Positions 33,408 through 40,334 of a stretch of DNA of 43,172 nt are shown here, piece by piece. The first letter of the stretch is position 1. Every line of letters begins with the position of its first letter. A model generated the notes under the pieces. The model was given only the letters and a program-made list of their open reading frames with translations. It was not told the DNA's origin and ran no database searches. Both the position numbers and the translations under genes were made by a program. Origin of the DNA: a virus (Duplodnaviria > Heunggongvirae > Uroviricota > Caudoviricetes); the IMG/VR virus record IMGVR_UViG_2675903609_000006. One strand, 5' to 3'.

Positions 33408-33967
33408 GCGTTAGTTTCTCCACAGTCACGACACGCCACGGCGCCCGGAGCTGCACACTCGCGGGCGTCATTACTTTCTGAAATGCAAAAAATTTTGTAG
33501 ACCAGTGCTGCATGCTCCTGCAGCTTCGAAATTGAGAGGTACAGCTCGTCGTTAATTGCTGTCTTCTCATGCGGTTCCACTACACCGTCTTCGATTGCTG
33601 AACGAATCTGTTTTGAATAACTGCCGATCTGTTCAATGACTTCCAGCAGACGCTGGTTAATATCGGCGTTGTCCACATCCTCGACGTCAGGAAGAGACAC
33701 AAAGACGCCATTTGCAGACTGCGCCACAGCGTCAGCAATGAAGTGAGTTCCACCAGCACGTTGCAAAATCATTGCCCATCCCAGCGGGAAAATCTGATCG
33801 CCATCGGCACGAAGGCGGTTAAATAATGCGTTCTCTGTTACATCCAGCCAGTCAGCTGCTTCAGCGTAACCACCCGGCAACTTTGCGATAGTTTTTCTGA
33901 CAGCTTTCACGTACCACTCAGGCTGTTTTTCTACTTTCCAGTGATGCTTACCCACGGTTAGCCTCAT
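33404..33967 (-). CDS. CII-like regulatory protein (putative)
   Basis: 187 aa immediately downstream of cro; tentative family resemblance only. Confidence 0.4.
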
Positions 33968-33998
33968 CGTTCTGTGGTTAAAAATTGAAAGTGTTCTG

Positions 33999-34199
33999 CT
34001 AATCTTTCGGATAGATATCCGGTCTTAAGTCAGATTTCGTAATTGCACCTGACGTGCATTGCTCAAGTTTTTTAGCCAGCACAAAACTGGCTTTTTTATA
34101 GCCATTGAAAACCAGCCGTAAGTAGCCAGGTGTTGAGCCAACTTTTCCGGCCAACTCGCCCTGCTGTTCTTTGGTTAAAGAGTCCCAATACGCTTTCAT
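33999..34199 (-). CDS. cro: Cro-like repressor (Cro/YdaS-type HTH)
   Basis: Divergent from the repressor gene; start taken at MKAYWDS because the ORF-track start overlaps an operator. Confidence 0.7.
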   Translation of the reverse strand: MKAYWDSLTKEQQGELAGKVGSTPGYLRLVFNGYKKASFVLAKKLEQCTSGAITKSDLRPDIYPKD

Positions 34200-34204
34200 A
34201 CAAT

Positions 34205-34274
34205 ATGTACCTCCGGTGTACATATTACATGATTAAAATGAACCTTCAAGATACTTGTACCTTAACGGTACAAG
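34205..34274. promoter_or_regulatory. Divergent immunity promoter region with two palindromic operators
   Basis: ATGTAC-CTCCGGT-GTACAT (34205-34223) and CTTGTACC-TTAA-CGGTACAAG (34254-34274) between cro and the repressor gene. Confidence 0.55.
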
Positions 34275-34289
34275 GGTTTTAATTTCGTT

Positions 34290-34964
34290 ATGAAAACAAT
34301 CCATGACATCCGGCGGTCTAACGCCAGAAAACTGAGAGATGGTGTTGGCGGGAATTCTTCCTTTGCCACTATGATTGATCGCGAGCCAACCCAGACCAGC
34401 AGGTTTATGGGAGATGGTGCTACTAAAAATATCGGTGACAGCATGGCACGACACATCGAAAAATGTTTCGACCTGCCTGTTGGATGGCTCGATCAAGAAC
34501 ACCAGACAACGAACATCACAAAAAAACCTGATGTTTCAATCACTAATAAACAAATCACATTAGTCCCTGTCATATCATGGGTACAGGCCGGAGCATGGAA
34601 AGAAGTTGGATATTCTGAGGTTGATTTGAGCACAGCAGAAACGTATCCCTGCCCTGTACCCTGTGGGGAAATGACTTATATCTTGCGGGTGATAGGTGAT
34701 TCAATGATTGATGAGTACCGCCCGGGAGACATGATTTTTGTCGATCCTGAAGTACCAGCCTGCCACGGTGACGACGTTATTGCATTGATGCACGATACAG
34801 GTGAAACCACCTTCAAAAGGTTGATAGAAGATGGGACACAGCGTTATCTCAAAGCGTTAAACCCAAACTGGCCTGAGCCTTACATTAAGATCAACGGTAA
34901 TTGCTCTATAATTGGAACTGTGATTTTCTCAGGAAAACCAAGAAGATACAAAATCAAAGCCTAA
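34290..34964 (+). CDS. cI: CI-type repressor with S24 (LexA-like) autopeptidase domain
   Basis: C-terminal domain with VIGDSM nucleophile and downstream Lys (FKRL), similar to recalled P22 C2. Confidence 0.85.
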   Translation: MKTIHDIRRSNARKLRDGVGGNSSFATMIDREPTQTSRFMGDGATKNIGDSMARHIEKCFDLPVGWLDQEHQTTNITKKPDVSITNKQITLVPVISWVQAGAWKEVGYSEVDLSTAETYPCPVPCGEMTYILRVIGDSMIDEYRPGDMIFVDPEVPACHGDDVIALMHDTGETTFKRLIEDGTQRYLKALNPNWPEPYIKINGNCSIIGTVIFSGKPRRYKIKA

Positions 34965-34975
34965 TCAATGTTTAT

Positions 34976-35000
34976 GAACCTGCTTCGGCAGGTTTTTTTA
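34976..35000 (+). terminator. Rho-independent terminator after the repressor gene
   Basis: AACCTGC-TTCG-GCAGGTT hairpin followed by TTTTTTT. Confidence 0.65.
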
Positions 35001-35003
35001 TAC

Positions 35004-35031
35004 TTGACAATGTACCCATGAGATACATAAT
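35004..35031 (+). promoter_or_regulatory. Near-consensus sigma70 promoter (pL-like candidate)
   Basis: TTGACA (35004-35009), 16-nt spacer, CATAAT (35026-35031); two ATGTACCC direct repeats overlap the spacer and the start region. Confidence 0.5.
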
Positions 35032-35120
35032 GTACCCAAGAGAAACAACGAACAGGCAGGACGCCCACGAAGTAGCCGCCTGGGGCATATAAAGTCTAGG
35101 GTGATTCGTTAGCAACAAAA

Positions 35121-35153
35121 AAGCGCCCTACAGGACGCTTAGCTCTTTAACAA
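35121..35153 (+). promoter_or_regulatory. Hairpin plus boxA-like motif (candidate antitermination element)
   Basis: AAGCGCC-CTACA-GGACGCTT hairpin, then GCTCTTTAACAA (35142-35153), which matches the recalled rrn boxA. Confidence 0.4.
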
Positions 35154-35198
35154 TCTGGTCCCCATCAACAAGTAACTGATAACTTGAGGAGGTGTGAA

Positions 35199-35405
35199 AT
35201 GCACAAAACAGAACCCAAAATCGTCGCGCCCGGATACACAAATGAGGAAATTTACGAGTGGATGGCAAAGAAGCTGGCAGCTATAAACCAGCTTCGTGAA
35301 GTGCTGTCTTATCGACAGGAAACAATAGACTCCTTAAAAAAACTGGATCAGGAAATCACGGTTTTATCACAGGATGTTACTTTAGATATTGTGCAGACAA
35401 ATTAG
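35199..35405 (+). CDS. Hypothetical protein (68 aa)
   Basis: ATG preceded by GAGGAGG; helical, coiled-coil-like product; not Arg-rich. Confidence 0.4.
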   Translation: MHKTEPKIVAPGYTNEEIYEWMAKKLAAINQLREVLSYRQETIDSLKKLDQEITVLSQDVTLDIVQTN

Positions 35406-35811
35406 GATCCCATTCATTTTCGTCAAAATCATCAAAGTGATGAATTTGTGATCTCCAGTCTCGATAATCTAAAAATTTCTGGGCGGTTACGCTTATTTTA
35501 TCAAGTGTGAGTTCATCCTGAATTGAAAGAAGAAGTTCATCAAATTTCATCTCATTAATCTGTTTTGGCATCCAGTGATGCTTCATCAGAATAAGGTGAA
35601 CCAGAGCCTTTTTCCCATTCAACTGATTATAGGGAGTGCCGAATTTCTTCCGGTGCTCATGTAAGACAAGGTCCAGAAGAGTAAGTAATGTTGCCCTTGA
35701 TTCCACTTTGCTTATTTCGACTGATGACACTACCCCACTGATTTCAATGCCCCGATACTTTCCAACATTTTCACAGTGGGATTTGTACAGCGTGTAGATA
35801 TTACCGGACAT
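35377..35811 (-). CDS. Hypothetical protein (144 aa), AT-rich cargo gene
   Basis: Convergent with and overlapping the 68-aa ORF by 29 nt; markedly lower GC than flanks; no family recognised. Confidence 0.5.
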   Translation of the reverse strand: MSGNIYTLYKSHCENVGKYRGIEISGVVSSVEISKVESRATLLTLLDLVLHEHRKKFGTPYNQLNGKKALVHLILMKHHWMPKQINEMKFDELLLSIQDELTLDKISVTAQKFLDYRDWRSQIHHFDDFDENEWDPNLSAQYLK

Positions 35812-36140
35812 TTCTTTTCCTTTTGCGTTGTTGGGGATAACCAGATTAACCGAATCCTTGTTGTTGGGGAATAACCAGGTCCACCTCGCCTGATGTGGCT
35901 AAAAGCAGGCACATAACAGCTAAGTATTTTTAACCAGAGAGAATCCTTAGCGTTGTGGTGAATGCGGCTCAGCGCACGCGGGTTAAGGTTGAGGCTGACA
36001 GTCGACCTTCTGTGGATACCCACCCGTCTGGTGTGCAACCTTCGCCAGGCACCGGGAGGCACCCGGCACCACAACTTTATGCTGTGTGTAGTCCTGGAGG
36101 TACCAGTTTGTACCCTTGCTTCCGGCTGGTACCGTCCTTT

Positions 36141-36240
36141 TTACAAAACAGAGAAGAGCATCACCGGACGACGGGCTCATAACCCAATCCATCCGGGCGG
36201 CTGCCACCGCAGGTGTTCTTCTCTGTTTTGTGGAGAAACT
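36141..36240 (+). other. Long inverted repeat (~17-bp arms, ~60-nt spacer) in a non-coding gap
   Basis: ACAAAACAGAGAAGAGCA (36143-36160) pairs with TGTTCTTCTCTGTTTTGT (36223-36240), one mismatch. Confidence 0.5.
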
Positions 36241-36279
36241 AATCGGCCTTGCAGGGTCGATATGATGAGGAGCAGCAAA

Positions 36280-36642
36280 ATGGCTAGCGAACGCAGTACT
36301 GATGTGCAGGCATTTATCGGGGAGCTGGACGGCGGCGTATTTGAAACCAAAATCGGCGCAGTTCTCAGTGAAGTCGCTTCCGGTGTGATGAACACGAAAA
36401 CCAAAGGTAAGGTCTCACTCAACCTGGAAATCGAACCATTTGATGAGAACCGTGTGAAAATCAAACACAAACTCTCATATGTTCGCCCGACTAACCGCGG
36501 GAAAATTTCCGAAGAAGACACCACCGAAACGCCGATGTATGTCAATCGCGGTGGTCGCCTGACTATTCTGCAGGAAGACCAGGGACAGTTACTGACTCTT
36601 GCCGGTGAACCTGACGGAAAACTCCGCGCAGCAGGTCGTTAA
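36280..36642 (+). CDS. Hypothetical early protein (YfdP-like)
   Basis: Start taken at MASERSTD with upstream GAGGAG; the ORF-track ORF extends further upstream through non-coding-looking sequence. Confidence 0.5.
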   Translation: MASERSTDVQAFIGELDGGVFETKIGAVLSEVASGVMNTKTKGKVSLNLEIEPFDENRVKIKHKLSYVRPTNRGKISEEDTTETPMYVNRGGRLTILQEDQGQLLTLAGEPDGKLRAAGR

Positions 36643-36707
36643 TATCGTTTTTAATTAACTGATTATTTATCTCATCACTGAATATCTTTATATAGTGAGG
36701 ACTTATT

Positions 36708-38854: not shown

Positions 38855-39204
38855 TGGAGCCATACAGCCTCACACTCGATGAGGCCTGTCATTTTCTCAA
38901 GATATCCAGACCGACTGCCATTAACTGGATACGCACAGGGCGTCTTCAGGCAACACGCAAAGATCCCACTAAGAATAAATCTCCTTACCTCACAACACGA
39001 CAAGCCTGCATTGCGGCTCTTCAGTCTCCGCTGCATACTGTCCAGGTGAGCGCGGGTGATGGCATAACAGAGGAAAGAAAATGTCACTCTTCCGCAGAGG
39101 TGAAATATGGTACGCCAGTTTCACATTGCCGAACGGTAAAAGATTTAAACAGTCTCTTGGAACAAAGGACAAAAGGCAGGCGACAGAACTCCATGACAAG
39201 CTAA
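38854..39204 (+). CDS. Excisionase-like HTH protein (3' end uncertain)
   Basis: ATG at 38854 preceded by AAGAGG; N-terminal HTH-like segment; frame overlaps the int start by ~120 nt. Confidence 0.4.
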
Positions 39205-40244
39205 AGGCTGAAGCATGGCGGGTCAGCAAACTTGGTGAAATACCTGATATAACGTTCGAGGAAGCGTGTGTCAGGTGGCTTGAAGAGAAAGCACATAAAA
39301 AATCACTGGACGATGACAAAAGCCGGATCGGATTCTGGCTTCAACATTTCGCAGGAATACAACTAAGAGACATTACTGAATCAAAAATTTATTCAGCAAT
39401 GCAGAAAATGACGAACCGGCGTCATGAGGAAAACTGGAAACTCAGGGCAGAATCATGCAGAAAAAAAGGGAAACCTGTTCCAGAATACACGCCAAAACCA
39501 GCGTCCGTTGCAACGAAGGCTACGCATCTTTCATTTATAAAGGCCCTACTAAGAGCCGCAGAGCGTGAATGGAAAATGCTGGATAAGGCACCAATTATTA
39601 AAGTGCCTCAACCAAAGAATAAACGGATCCGCTGGCTGGAGCCCCATGAAGCACAAAGGCTGATTGATGAATGTCCGGAGCCATTAAAGTCTGTTGTTGA
39701 ATTTGCACTGGCAACAGGCTTAAGACGCTCGAACATCATCAACCTTGAATGGCAACAAATAGATATGCAGCGCCGGGTGGCATGGATAAACCCGGAAGAG
39801 AGTAAATCAAACCGCGCAATTGGCGTTGCGCTGAATGATACTGCATGTCGCGTATTGAAAAAACAAATCGGGAATCATCACCGTTGGGTATTTGTGTACA
39901 AGGAAAGCTGTACCAAACCAGACGGAACGAAAGCGCCAACAGTAAGGAAGATGCGGTATGACGCAAACACAGCCTGGAAAGCGGCGCTGAGACGGGCTGG
40001 TATTGATGATTTCAGATTTCACGACTTGAGACACACCTGGGCAAGTTGGCTGGTTCAAGCCGGAGTCCCGTTGTCAGTTTTACAGGAAATGGGAGGCTGG
40101 GAGTCTATCGAAATGGTTCGTCGATATGCTCACCTTGCACCTAATCACCTTACCGAACACGCACGGCAAATAGACTCGATCCTGAACCCATCGGTCCCAA
40201 ATTTGTCCCAGTCAAAAAATAAGGAAGGTACTAATGATGTGTAA
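39081..40244 (+). CDS. int: Tyrosine integrase (site-specific recombinase)
   Basis: 387 aa with catalytic motifs ([24 protein letters not shown]...RYAH); ends 15 nt before the tRNA. Confidence 0.9.
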
Positions 40245-40258
40245 CTTATTGATTTTAA

Positions 40259-40304
40259 TGGTGCCGATAATAGGAGTCGAACCTACGACCTTCGCATTAC
40301 GAAT
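40259..40304. repeat. Proximal attachment-site core (3' 46 nt of the tRNA)
   Basis: Identical to 433-478. Confidence 0.8.
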
Positions 40305-40334
40305 GCGCTGCTCTACCAACTGAGCTATATCGGC
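40259..40334 (-). tRNA. thrW: tRNA-Thr (anticodon CGT) - integration target
   Basis: Reverse complement reads GCCGATATAGCTCAGTTGGTAGAGCAGCGCATTCGTAATGCGAAGGTCGTAGGTTCGACTCCTATTATCGGCACCA (76 nt, CCA end at 40259). Confidence 0.9.

Follow-up and report, generated by a model that had tools for sequence, protein, structure and literature searches.

Immediately beyond the repressor gene of the 43,172-nucleotide IMG/VR virus record IMGVR_UViG_2675903609_000006 (the whole of which is called the window below), a strong early promoter is followed by a segment of DNA that related phages exchange for other contents. We describe here this early-left promoter and its operator, PL/OL (35004-35048), together with what comparison with related phages delimits as a self-contained, exchangeable cassette of about 770 bp (35114-35880) within the PL leader. 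As read from these comparisons, the frame of the cassette comprises a terminator for minus-strand transcripts, a boxA of the ribosomal RNA operon (rrn) type that is readable only in the PL transcript, and an arm of about 20 nt with a distant complement; its payload here is an open reading frame (ORF) of 144 codons facing against PL, ORF144, and a small PL-sense one, ORF68. On balance, we favor a reading in which the cassette is an insulated antisense moron whose boxA and inverted-repeat bracket let transcription from PL cross it in a phage without an N protein; we infer this mechanism, as well as the functions of both proteins. The promoter-operator part is ordinary, and the terminator-boxA-bracket frame would combine the moron with Nus/boxA antitermination. 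No published description of such a frame was found in the searchable literature, and the packaging of a guest gene with a terminator, a boxA and flanking inverted repeats has apparently not been described before. The original prediction for this DNA, made from the letters alone, had seen an immunity-adjacent module of promoter, boxA-like motif and two convergent genes; those features are real and correctly placed, while the inverted-repeat bracket and the cassette nature of 35114-35880 had been overlooked.

The cassette and its frame

The cassette and the features within it are as follows (positions in the window).

35114-35880, unstranded: exchangeable cassette, delimited by blastn breakpoints; content differs in SfV, e14, PhiR29, Ayreon and cdtI
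35117-35140, minus strand: intrinsic terminator for minus-strand transcripts, with its hairpin at 35121-35140; a terminator scan calls the minus strand only
35142-35154, plus strand: boxA, GCTCTTTAACAAT, in the sense of the PL transcript, at about +105 from the predicted start
35152-35171, plus strand: left bracket arm, AATCTGGTCCCCATCAACAA, 20 nt, starting inside boxA, from an inverted-repeat search
35199-35405, plus strand: ORF68, small early protein of 68 aa (phrog_1744, E = 4.8e-34)
35377-35811, minus strand: ORF144 (= SfIV_36), 144 aa, ECs1072 family (NCBIfam NF033230, phrog_5286)
35828-35885, plus strand: right bracket arm, duplicated in direct orientation (35828-35851 and 35857-35885) and lying about 20-70 nt upstream of where ORF144 starts

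In a nucleotide comparison, 34200-36300 is 99.9% identical to Shigella phage SfIV. Against other relatives, blastn alignments break off and resume around the cassette: SfV and e14 match the window to 35110/35113 and again from 35881, PhiR29_1 to 35158 and again from 35827, and Ayreon and cdtI to 35061 and again from 36095, while Kati matches continuously over 35047-36700 despite its different repressor and promoter. The slot is occupied by orf33 in SfV, by ymfJ/ymfI in e14 and by a single minus-strand gene in PhiR29; within this comparison set, hairpin and boxA are confined to the SfIV, Kati and PhiR29 types, and SfV, e14 and Ayreon have neither. The striking AT-richness first remarked on for the segment of the 144-aa ORF is borne out by a guanine-plus-cytosine (GC) content of 0.345-0.40 across 35300-35700, as against 0.48-0.57 rightward of it and about 0.50 for the SfIV phage (PMC3851460). 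Both composition and patchy presence are of the moron type, with a GC content of 0.35-0.44 for the cassette and some close relatives lacking it.

At the left end of the frame, the hairpin at 35121-35140 is an intrinsic terminator for the minus strand, and its strand preference is evident from its energetics. In minus-strand RNA it forms an 8-bp stem of -11.5 kcal/mol followed by UUUUUU, as against -7.5 kcal/mol and no U-run on the plus strand; one stem position is a U.G wobble in the minus RNA and a C.A mismatch in the plus RNA, an asymmetry kept in variants. When IMG/VR was scanned with an exact pattern for the hairpin-boxA junction, at least 120 contigs with about 40 sequence variants came up, and here and below the figures given for these contigs, their brackets and their arms hold among the matches listed. 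Across the variants, the terminator stem is conserved and the loop freely variable. In PhiR29 and in Klebsiella phage Kp4882-1, where the hairpin carries a UUCG loop, it lies about 20-40 nt past the stop codon of the minus-strand gene. The same hairpin was considered as a boxB-type partner of boxA and rejected in view of its minus-strand terminator energetics, its U6 tail and its position 5' of boxA.

The hairpin is followed, as had been noted from the letters, by GCTCTTTAACAA (35142-35153), the sole exact copy in the window, in which about 0.005 copies of an exact 12-mer are expected by arithmetic. Eleven of these positions, GCTCTTTAACA at 35142-35152, fit GYTCTTTAANA, the gamma-proteobacterial consensus drawn from functional boxAs (PMC5725501), and are its only match in the window against 0.16 expected; the identity to rrn boxA, GCUCUUUAACAAU, extends over 13 nt (PMC5725501 for the rrn sequence). 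Taken alone, the motif is moderately surprising, and the weight of the case appears to rest on its conservation in other phages. Two loci reached via protein homologues, L011 and L016, encode ECs1072-family proteins of 53% and 33% identity; they lie behind different repressors, and in both the same hairpin is followed by CGCTCTTTAAAAATCTGG. A distant-homologue profile retrieved 22 loci, seven of which have the motif in PL sense; in L161 it reads TGCTCTTTAACAA, other loci of this set show mutated stems, and L152 keeps CGCTCTTTAACAAT beside a hairpin that has been replaced. Among loci found through proteins, boxA is kept beside altered or replaced hairpins in L011, L016, L143, L152, L161 and L162, and its orientation and its distance of about 95-130 nt from the promoter are alike in Kp4882-1, L011 and L016. 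The variants take the form (A/C/T)GCTCTTTAA(C/A)AA, and the variable positions are only those that also differ among the boxAs of rrn, lambda nutL and lambda nutR. We read this element as a genuine boxA-class motif in PL sense, for which NusB/NusE binding and Rho resistance are predicted.

The view that no N protein serves this boxA also stands. ORF68 has no Arg-rich motif, no Arg-rich N-like ORF occurs in the early region except a spurious frame over structured RNA, and in the SfIV paper neither N nor cII nor cIII is reported for that phage, nor N for SfV or SfII (PMC3851460). As regards a nut site, there is no boxB 3' of boxA: the conserved hairpin lies 5', and the sequence 3' is the arm, which diverges between cassettes. 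A consensus scan of the PR transcript found no second boxA (nutR). The PR transcript does contain, inside cro, the boxA-like ACTCTTTAACCA at 34172-34183 (minus strand), which has two mismatches, fails the functional consensus twice and is probably a chance occurrence. Of the proposal that boxA supports N-independent antitermination, the genuine boxA and the missing N hold, but a role as the general device of the phage group does not: SfV, e14, Ayreon and cdtI share PL and the downstream genes without boxA, so that boxA travels with the cassette and is not a general early antitermination device.

The third part of the frame is the bracket. The left arm is complementary to 35828-35847 and better still to the second copy at 35857-35870 (pairing span 35857-35880), 660-690 nt downstream. 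The best arm duplex reaches -27.3 kcal/mol, compared with -18.3 +/- 2.2 for the shuffled arm; none of 100 shuffles was as low, and only two of 89 other real 26-mers match this energy. Among the listed contigs plus the window, a right arm complementary to the left one lies 350-830 nt downstream in 111 of 121 cases. Pairing is seen in 88.8% of cells across 30 distinct arm pairs; nine of 16 arm pairs have changed on both sides, with 29 compensatory cells, and none of 500 shuffles reaches the observed covariation values, slid partners pairing at only 18-49%. In a compensated variant, GGATATCC/GGATATCC has become GGATGACT/AGTCATCC, by which the internal palindrome is lost and the complementarity between the arms is kept. 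The right-arm block precedes unrelated minus-strand genes in PhiR29, Kp4882-1, L016 and L012, and may be a regulatory or promoter region of the guest genes. Within 35828-35885, the direct copies GGGGA(A)TAACCAG stand 34 bp apart, and the minus strand reads CTGGTTAT(T)CCCCAACAAC.

What the bracket encloses varies widely. An ECs1072-family gene on the minus strand with an ORF68-family gene on the plus strand fills 57 of the 111 brackets, the 171-aa minus-strand gene of PhiR29/Kp4882-1 fills 26, and at least five further families are spread over the other 28; 15 of these were inspected, and each has its longest ORF on the minus strand. Altogether, the frame encloses at least seven unrelated minus-strand genes in IMG/VR, and the plus-strand gene just upstream of it encodes cI-type repressors of at least four unrelated clusters. 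Because such varied minus-strand payloads sit behind at least four repressor clusters, the frame appears to serve several immunity groups as a general socket, placed in the PL leader, for guest genes that face backwards. No recombinase or transposase accompanies the cassette among these payloads. Several payloads look like membrane or exported proteins: one of 150-172 aa starting with MNRDD/MTRDD and having two predicted transmembrane helices (L024, L039, L040, L044, L092, L098), one of 170-175 aa with a signal peptide (L041, L048, L059), and a multi-pass membrane protein of about 160 aa (L051, L118). All of these are oriented opposite to PL and are candidates for lysogenic-conversion or exclusion roles.

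Promoter, operators and the surrounding prophage

The elements on either side of the cassette are listed here.

34290-34964, plus strand: cI-type repressor, 224 aa, Peptidase_S24 (Pfam PF00717, E = 1.5e-26)
34976-35002, plus strand: intrinsic terminator of cI, with an 8-bp stem (34976-34995) and a T-run; an annotated terminator in SfV and Ayreon
35004-35031, plus strand: PL-type promoter TTGACA-16-CATAAT, with -35 at 35004-35009 and -10 at 35026-35031; an annotated promoter in Ayreon
35010-35048, unstranded: OL, two 19-bp operators (35010-35028 and 35030-35048), sharing their motif only with two OR sites
35047-35113, plus strand: conserved PL leader, with a hairpin at 35079-35101 and a GATGATTCG-type motif, here GGTGATTCG, at 35100-35108
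35922-36144, plus strand: STnc100-like structured RNA (Rfam RF02076, 38.4 bits, E = 2e-6, below the gathering score of 47)

The near-consensus promoter that had been proposed is indeed strong: it scores 11/12, is the top promoter-like site across 33900-36400, and sits 40 nt past the cI stop codon, directly after the cI terminator, reading away from the repressor gene. The ATGTACCC repeats that had been likened to operator half-sites (35010-17 and 35030-37) each form the left half of a 19-bp operator of the OR type, WTGTACC-N5-GNWACAW; the two operators overlie the PL spacer, the -10 element and the start site. The only other matches to this motif in the 43-kb window are at 34205-23 and 34255-73, between cro and cI; the seven strand-matches compare with 0.32 expected, and none of 100 shuffles reaches seven. 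Because operators of the OR type cover a strong promoter adjoining the repressor gene, 35004-35048 is PL/OL, the promoter and operator for early-left transcription in a prophage of e14/SfV immunity.

Since two operators for the resident repressor overlie the promoter, PL is expected to be silent in the lysogen; by analogy with e14, the adjacent YmfK-type repressor would shut PL off and its cleavage would release it. The repressor of the window is the same protein as e14 YmfK/CohE, accession WP_000848748.1 being common to an E. coli locus with 100% identical DNA and to K-12-lineage e14 (PGAP labels), and the e14 PL region is 93% identical to that of the window. In e14, ymfJ, the first gene after the same promoter, and intE are switched on late in the SOS response (log2 fold change 4-4.8), and ymfM, on the cro side of the repressor gene, is induced late alongside them (PMC11002266). 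Late induction of all three genes would fit slow cleavage of a cI-type repressor, as expected.

The original prediction had placed both ORFs where lambda carries rexAB and had proposed that both are expressed in the lysogen. The cI gene ends at its own terminator with PL directly behind it, and for this reason ORF68 and ORF144, both beyond PL, occupy the position of lambda's N, downstream of PL, and not that of rexAB. As for expression, ORF144 looks foreign and is possibly a lysogen-expressed accessory gene, in line with the prediction, but ORF68 is driven by PL and, going by the operator layout, is predicted to be an early gene that is repressed in the lysogen.

The PL leader segment is common to phages with different repressors (Kati, L011, L016), and GATGATTCG is found at most 60 nt upstream of the hairpin-boxA element in 92 of 110 IMG/VR loci. 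Its hairpin at 35079-35101 shows compensatory changes among six sequences; folded as a whole, the leader is no stabler than shuffles (z = +0.65), and covariation supports only this small hairpin. SfV and e14, which have no cassette frame, nevertheless keep the segment, and its GATGATTCG-type motif is invariant.

Beyond the cassette and still in the PL transcription unit, 35922-36144 is at best a divergent relative of STnc100, as judged from its similarity to the Rfam model. It ends in a terminator-like hairpin at about 36096-36143 (-18.5 kcal/mol, U5 tail), and similar elements stand at the equivalent position in SfV (39.5 bits) and Kp4882-1 (35 bits). STnc100 and PasD have been described as related prophage small RNAs (sRNAs) (bioRxiv 10.64898/2026.05.13.724894). 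The ORFs annotated over the element, namely SfIV_35, the N-terminal extension of SfIV_34, e14 ymfH and a PGAP "frameshifted hypothetical," are probably spurious. Adjoining its 3' end, just upstream of the yfdP start, is a near-perfect long hairpin on the plus strand (36145-36229; -41.9 kcal/mol, z = -4.5, no shuffle being as stable). At the Rfam gathering threshold, a tRNA is the sole match in the window. SfV and Ayreon have above-threshold matches to C4 antisense RNA and isrK (1660-1848, minus strand) inside the "immunity region" gene orf37, a second immunity module of the P1/P7 type that the SfIV-type window does not have.

As to the prophage at large, the minus-strand genes to the left of OR are a replication gene, a gene at the cII position and cro, and the plus-strand order after OR is the repressor, the promoter with the ORF68/ORF144 region, homologues of yfdP, yfdQ, yfdR and yfdS, xis and int. 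Toward the end of the window, the integrase gene (39081-40244) adjoins an oppositely oriented tRNA-Thr(CGU) (40259-40334); this is therefore a prophage integrated at a thrW-type site. With the prophage/host junction at 39081-40334, host DNA makes up the final 3 kb of the window.

ORF144 and ORF68

Profile and structure searches, which had been suggested for both proteins, placed each in a family, although the 144-aa ORF had been described as having no recognizable family. ORF144 matches NCBIfam NF033230 with 157.8 bits (cut-off 70) as well as phrog_5286, and Sakai ECs1072 aligns to the family profile at 96.8% probability. A full HMMER scan gave 65 representative clusters, mostly of 140-155 aa, and an alignment of 37 sequences shows the conserved motifs R..Q.F.LE..L..HR, PL.G..AL.H and EW.P. 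AlphaFold2 predicts an all-alpha fold with confidence (predicted local distance difference test, pLDDT, 93.5; predicted template modeling score, pTM, 0.88) for which no structural match emerged, the best Foldseek hit in BFVD having E = 0.78; a search of PDB sequences with the ORF144 profile returned nothing at E <= 10. Pfam holds no domain for ORF68, ORF144 or SfV orf33, and PADLOC gives no match for any of the three (for ORF68 and ORF144 at E <= 1). In these searches neither ORF68 nor ORF144 matched a profile of an established anti-phage defense system or toxin-antitoxin pair.

Members of the ECs1072 family lie antisense in three operons: PL here, PR of Sakai Sp4, and the Q-holin interval (P0080). 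Because a 2.13-fold change of ECs1072 was recorded at a growth transition of Sakai in work without prophage induction (PMC2241611), that gene was detectably transcribed. ORF144 is possibly a lysogen-expressed moron, a candidacy based on composition and context. In Sp4 (L021, 9168-9816), ECs1072 stands antisense between the cII-position gene and the replication gene, and an unannotated 169-aa plus-strand ORF overlaps most of it. As an ORF68-like partner this 169-aa ORF was not convincing, its N-terminal resemblance being weak (hhalign probability 11%).

ORF68 belongs to phrog_1744, is preceded by a strong Shine-Dalgarno sequence, GAGGAGG, and is absent from the GenBank annotation of SfIV. Its homologues, at 28-41% identity, keep an N-terminal KEPxIIANGxxxEExxxWMxxKL, and AlphaFold2 predicts one long helix over residues 15-60 (pLDDT 88). 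ORF68 and ORF144 are convergent and overlap by 29 nt at their 3' ends. The same convergent, overlapping arrangement of ORF68-like and ECs1072-like genes recurs in L012, which belongs to a different immunity group (41% and 53% identity), and in the Xenorhabdus prophages L015 and L019 (28-31% and 38%).

Proposed mechanism, alternatives and known systems

Under the reading we favor, the terminator would keep transcription of ORF144 from extending into PL and cI. Once the prophage is induced, RNA polymerase starting at PL would, without N, face about 900 nt of untranslated RNA before yfdP, made up of the antisense of ORF144, the STnc100-like RNA with its terminator-like hairpin, and the hairpin at 36145-36229. 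In this transcript boxA would recruit NusB/NusE, with NusA, NusG and SuhB, and protect polymerase against Rho, as happens in rrn operons and CRISPR arrays; the arms would pair like the rrn leader-trailer helix, looping out the antisense payload, and their helix might create a ribonuclease III (RNase III) site. More speculatively, ORF144 could be an accessory protein expressed from the prophage, such as a factor for exclusion or for modifying the host; ORF68, the synthesis of which would depend on PL firing, could be its partner or antagonist; and the overlapping convergent transcripts could add mutual antisense control. The role of ORF68 as an early partner or antagonist is a guess, since it is drawn only from conserved linkage, opposite regulation and overlapping transcripts. 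A stronger version, which we hold as a tentative possibility, makes the frame a portable insulator found in temperate enterobacterial phages without N: a miniature rrn leader of hairpin, consensus boxA and leader-trailer-type helix with which host Nus factors alone would let early-left transcription cross, and possibly excise, the antisense of a gene expressed from the prophage, the hairpin terminating that gene in the opposite direction.

Several observations weigh against the favored reading. Complexes of the rrn type are known mainly for countering Rho and are not known to overcome intrinsic terminators efficiently, and the terminator-like hairpin at about 36096-36143 stands in the path of the PL transcript. 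SfV, e14, Ayreon and cdtI have neither boxA nor bracket despite untranslated stretches and the same PL and downstream genes, and since these siblings manage in this way, boxA is dispensable for early-left expression. A search of the 250 nt upstream of ORF144 and of other bracketed genes revealed no sigma-70-like promoter; among the genes searched, e14 ymfI, with a plausible extended -10, was the sole candidate. L016 brackets an ECs1072 homologue without an ORF68-like ORF, for which reason the ORF68-ORF144 pairing appears frequent and not obligatory. As to the statistics, the scan pattern fixed boxA plus AATCT, the first five arm positions, which inflates the apparent conservation, and the right arm was picked as the best-matching AGATT-anchored site, which somewhat inflates the pairing percentages. 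Wobble cells number 36 G.U on plus RNA against 16 on minus, an asymmetry that is suggestive but too weak, and too confounded by transition bias, to assign the helix to a strand or to RNA rather than DNA. Finally, we infer every functional step of the frame from sequence.

Among the alternatives, an unlikely one that nevertheless deserves attention is that the frame acts on DNA, as recombination linkers or terminal repeats for cassette swaps, with boxA a passenger without Nus function. The frame coincides exactly with the boundaries of payload exchange; a DNA-binding protein or a recombination site would also conserve inverted-repeat symmetry, and the core GGATATCC forms a palindrome of its own; wobble pairs set the two strands apart only weakly, and siblings without boxA still carry the same early-left genes. 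Yet among the matches listed no recombinase or transposase travels along, the GGATGACT/AGTCATCC variants lose the palindrome and retain the complementarity between arms, and boxA is always in PL sense, about 100 nt from the promoter and behind at least four repressor types; L152 keeps boxA beside a replaced hairpin, and a chance 13-nt identity to rrn boxA is unlikely. We regard as improbable a function of the minus strand, in which a moron messenger RNA (mRNA) or an sRNA derived from its 3' end, ending in ...AUUGUUAAAGAGC, the terminator hairpin and U6, would be an anti-boxA RNA that targets the boxA of rrn leaders or the nut sites of superinfecting lambdoid phages and interferes with antitermination, the arms stabilizing the mRNA. 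Given the preference of the terminator, minus RNAs should end right after the boxA complement, and a seed beside a terminator hairpin and U-tail resembles Hfq-type sRNAs; the element always accompanies a minus-strand gene among the matches listed, and a minus transcript started upstream of the right arm would include both arms. Speaking against it are the minus-strand promoter that was not found in 250 nt upstream of bracketed genes, the arm wobble pairs that favor the plus strand (36 vs 16, matches listed), the variation of the motif at positions tolerated in functional boxAs, as sense-strand function predicts, and the price that the host would pay for titration of its rrn boxA.

The remaining two alternatives concern the proteins. 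The version of the original prediction, that both ORFs are rexAB-equivalent exclusion or regulatory genes driven by the strong promoter in the lysogen, now appears very improbable. The location does adjoin the immunity gene, ORF144 is AT-rich and without an assigned function, and transcription of ECs1072 was detected in Sakai without prophage induction; but the promoter bears two operators for the resident repressor, which already contradicts lysogenic expression of ORF68, the e14 counterpart of this promoter is on only late in SOS, the cI terminator precedes the promoter and so leaves no cI-rex-type co-transcription, ORF144 lies on the opposite strand and cannot use PL, and neither protein matches PADLOC. 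We give the least credence of all to boxA as part of a lambda-type nutL with ORF68 as an unconventional N-like antiterminator. ORF68 does stand at N's position, directly after the leader boxA, and a weak AU-rich hairpin, CAAGU-N8-ACUUG (35169-35186), lies 3' of boxA, but the protein has no arginine-rich motif and its predicted fold is one long helix; moreover, PhiR29, Kp4882-1 and L016 keep hairpin and boxA without ORF68, PhiR29 diverges 5 nt downstream of boxA, and the PR transcript has no second boxA (nutR).

Shigella and E. coli commonly carry phages of the SfV, SfIV, SfII and e14 types, and SfV, SfIV and SfII have yielded no N gene; the boxA linked to guest genes would be a concrete answer, for part of the phage group, to the question of how the early-left operon (yfdP-xis-int) is read past terminators and untranslated stretches. 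If the portable insulator is real, it would be the first case of a phage employing protein-independent boxA antitermination of the rrn style together with RNA looping, and would account for morons that sit backwards within essential operons. Phage operons would also join the short list of settings (rrn, suhB, CRISPR arrays) where Nus factors work unaided by N. In addition, the frame marks a hotspot of at least seven unrelated small prophage genes, including those of membrane and secreted proteins, and offers a handle for the discovery of lysogenic-conversion and exclusion genes. ORF144 and ORF68, a conserved two-gene unit of which the former has a confident yet unmatched fold, are candidates for a phage-exclusion or host-modifying phenotype.

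Comparison with known systems helps to place these features. The put elements of HK022 likewise provide an N-independent, leader-RNA route for early transcription through terminators; they act without Nus factors, whereas boxA implies Nus factors, and identity with put was rejected, there being no blastn similarity to the HK022 PL leader and no shared Rfam match. With lambda PL/OL-nutL-N the region shares a strong, repressor-controlled promoter beside cI, a leader boxA, and early-left genes running to xis and int; unlike lambda, it has two detected operators instead of three, its boxA lies in an optional cassette, and it has no boxB 3' of boxA, no N protein and no rexAB-type genes. The cassette resembles morons in its low GC content, its variability among close relatives, its own terminator and an orientation allowing expression independent of the lytic program, and differs in that its promoter was not identified here and that boxA and bracket serve the interrupted host operon, which falls outside the classical description of morons. 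The ymfJ/ymfI pair of e14 shares the repressor, PL and the slot, and there too a small PL-sense gene converges on and overlaps a minus-strand gene, the two being listed as a convergent excludon with overlapping transcription in RNA-seq data (PMC12288877); in contrast, the proteins are unrelated, the terminator-boxA-bracket frame is absent, and ymfI has a plausible promoter of its own.

The closest parallels are found where Nus factors act without N. In the CRISPR arrays of Salmonella, long untranslated transcripts for which boxA-mediated antitermination has been reported (PMC7665894), and in the 5' untranslated region of suhB (PMC5725501), a consensus boxA likewise lies near the 5' end of a long untranslated stretch; unlike there, the element here belongs to the early operon of a phage, goes together with a terminator for the opposite strand and a bracket, and moves between phages. 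In rrn operons, boxA is necessary and sufficient for the antitermination complex (rrnTAC), the order is boxB-boxA-boxC, leader-trailer helices flank the ribosomal RNAs (rRNAs), and an RNase III site overlaps boxC within the helix (PMC10250234); Nus factors have also been proposed to aid rRNA folding there (PMC4807359). The cassette follows the rrn leader in its succession of hairpin, boxA and the 5' half of a long-range helix, the other half of which is reached only past an untranslated payload, in the 13-nt identity of its boxA to GCUCUUUAACAAU, and in a model that needs no phage protein. It departs from it in that the payload is the antisense of a protein gene, 350-830 nt in length, and not rRNA, that the hairpin doubles as a terminator for the opposite strand, and that the arm overlaps boxA, whereas the rrn arm follows about 15-20 nt after it. 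By this analogy, the frame may work like an rrn leader, with Nus binding, Rho resistance and RNase III processing as its predicted properties, while not itself being one.

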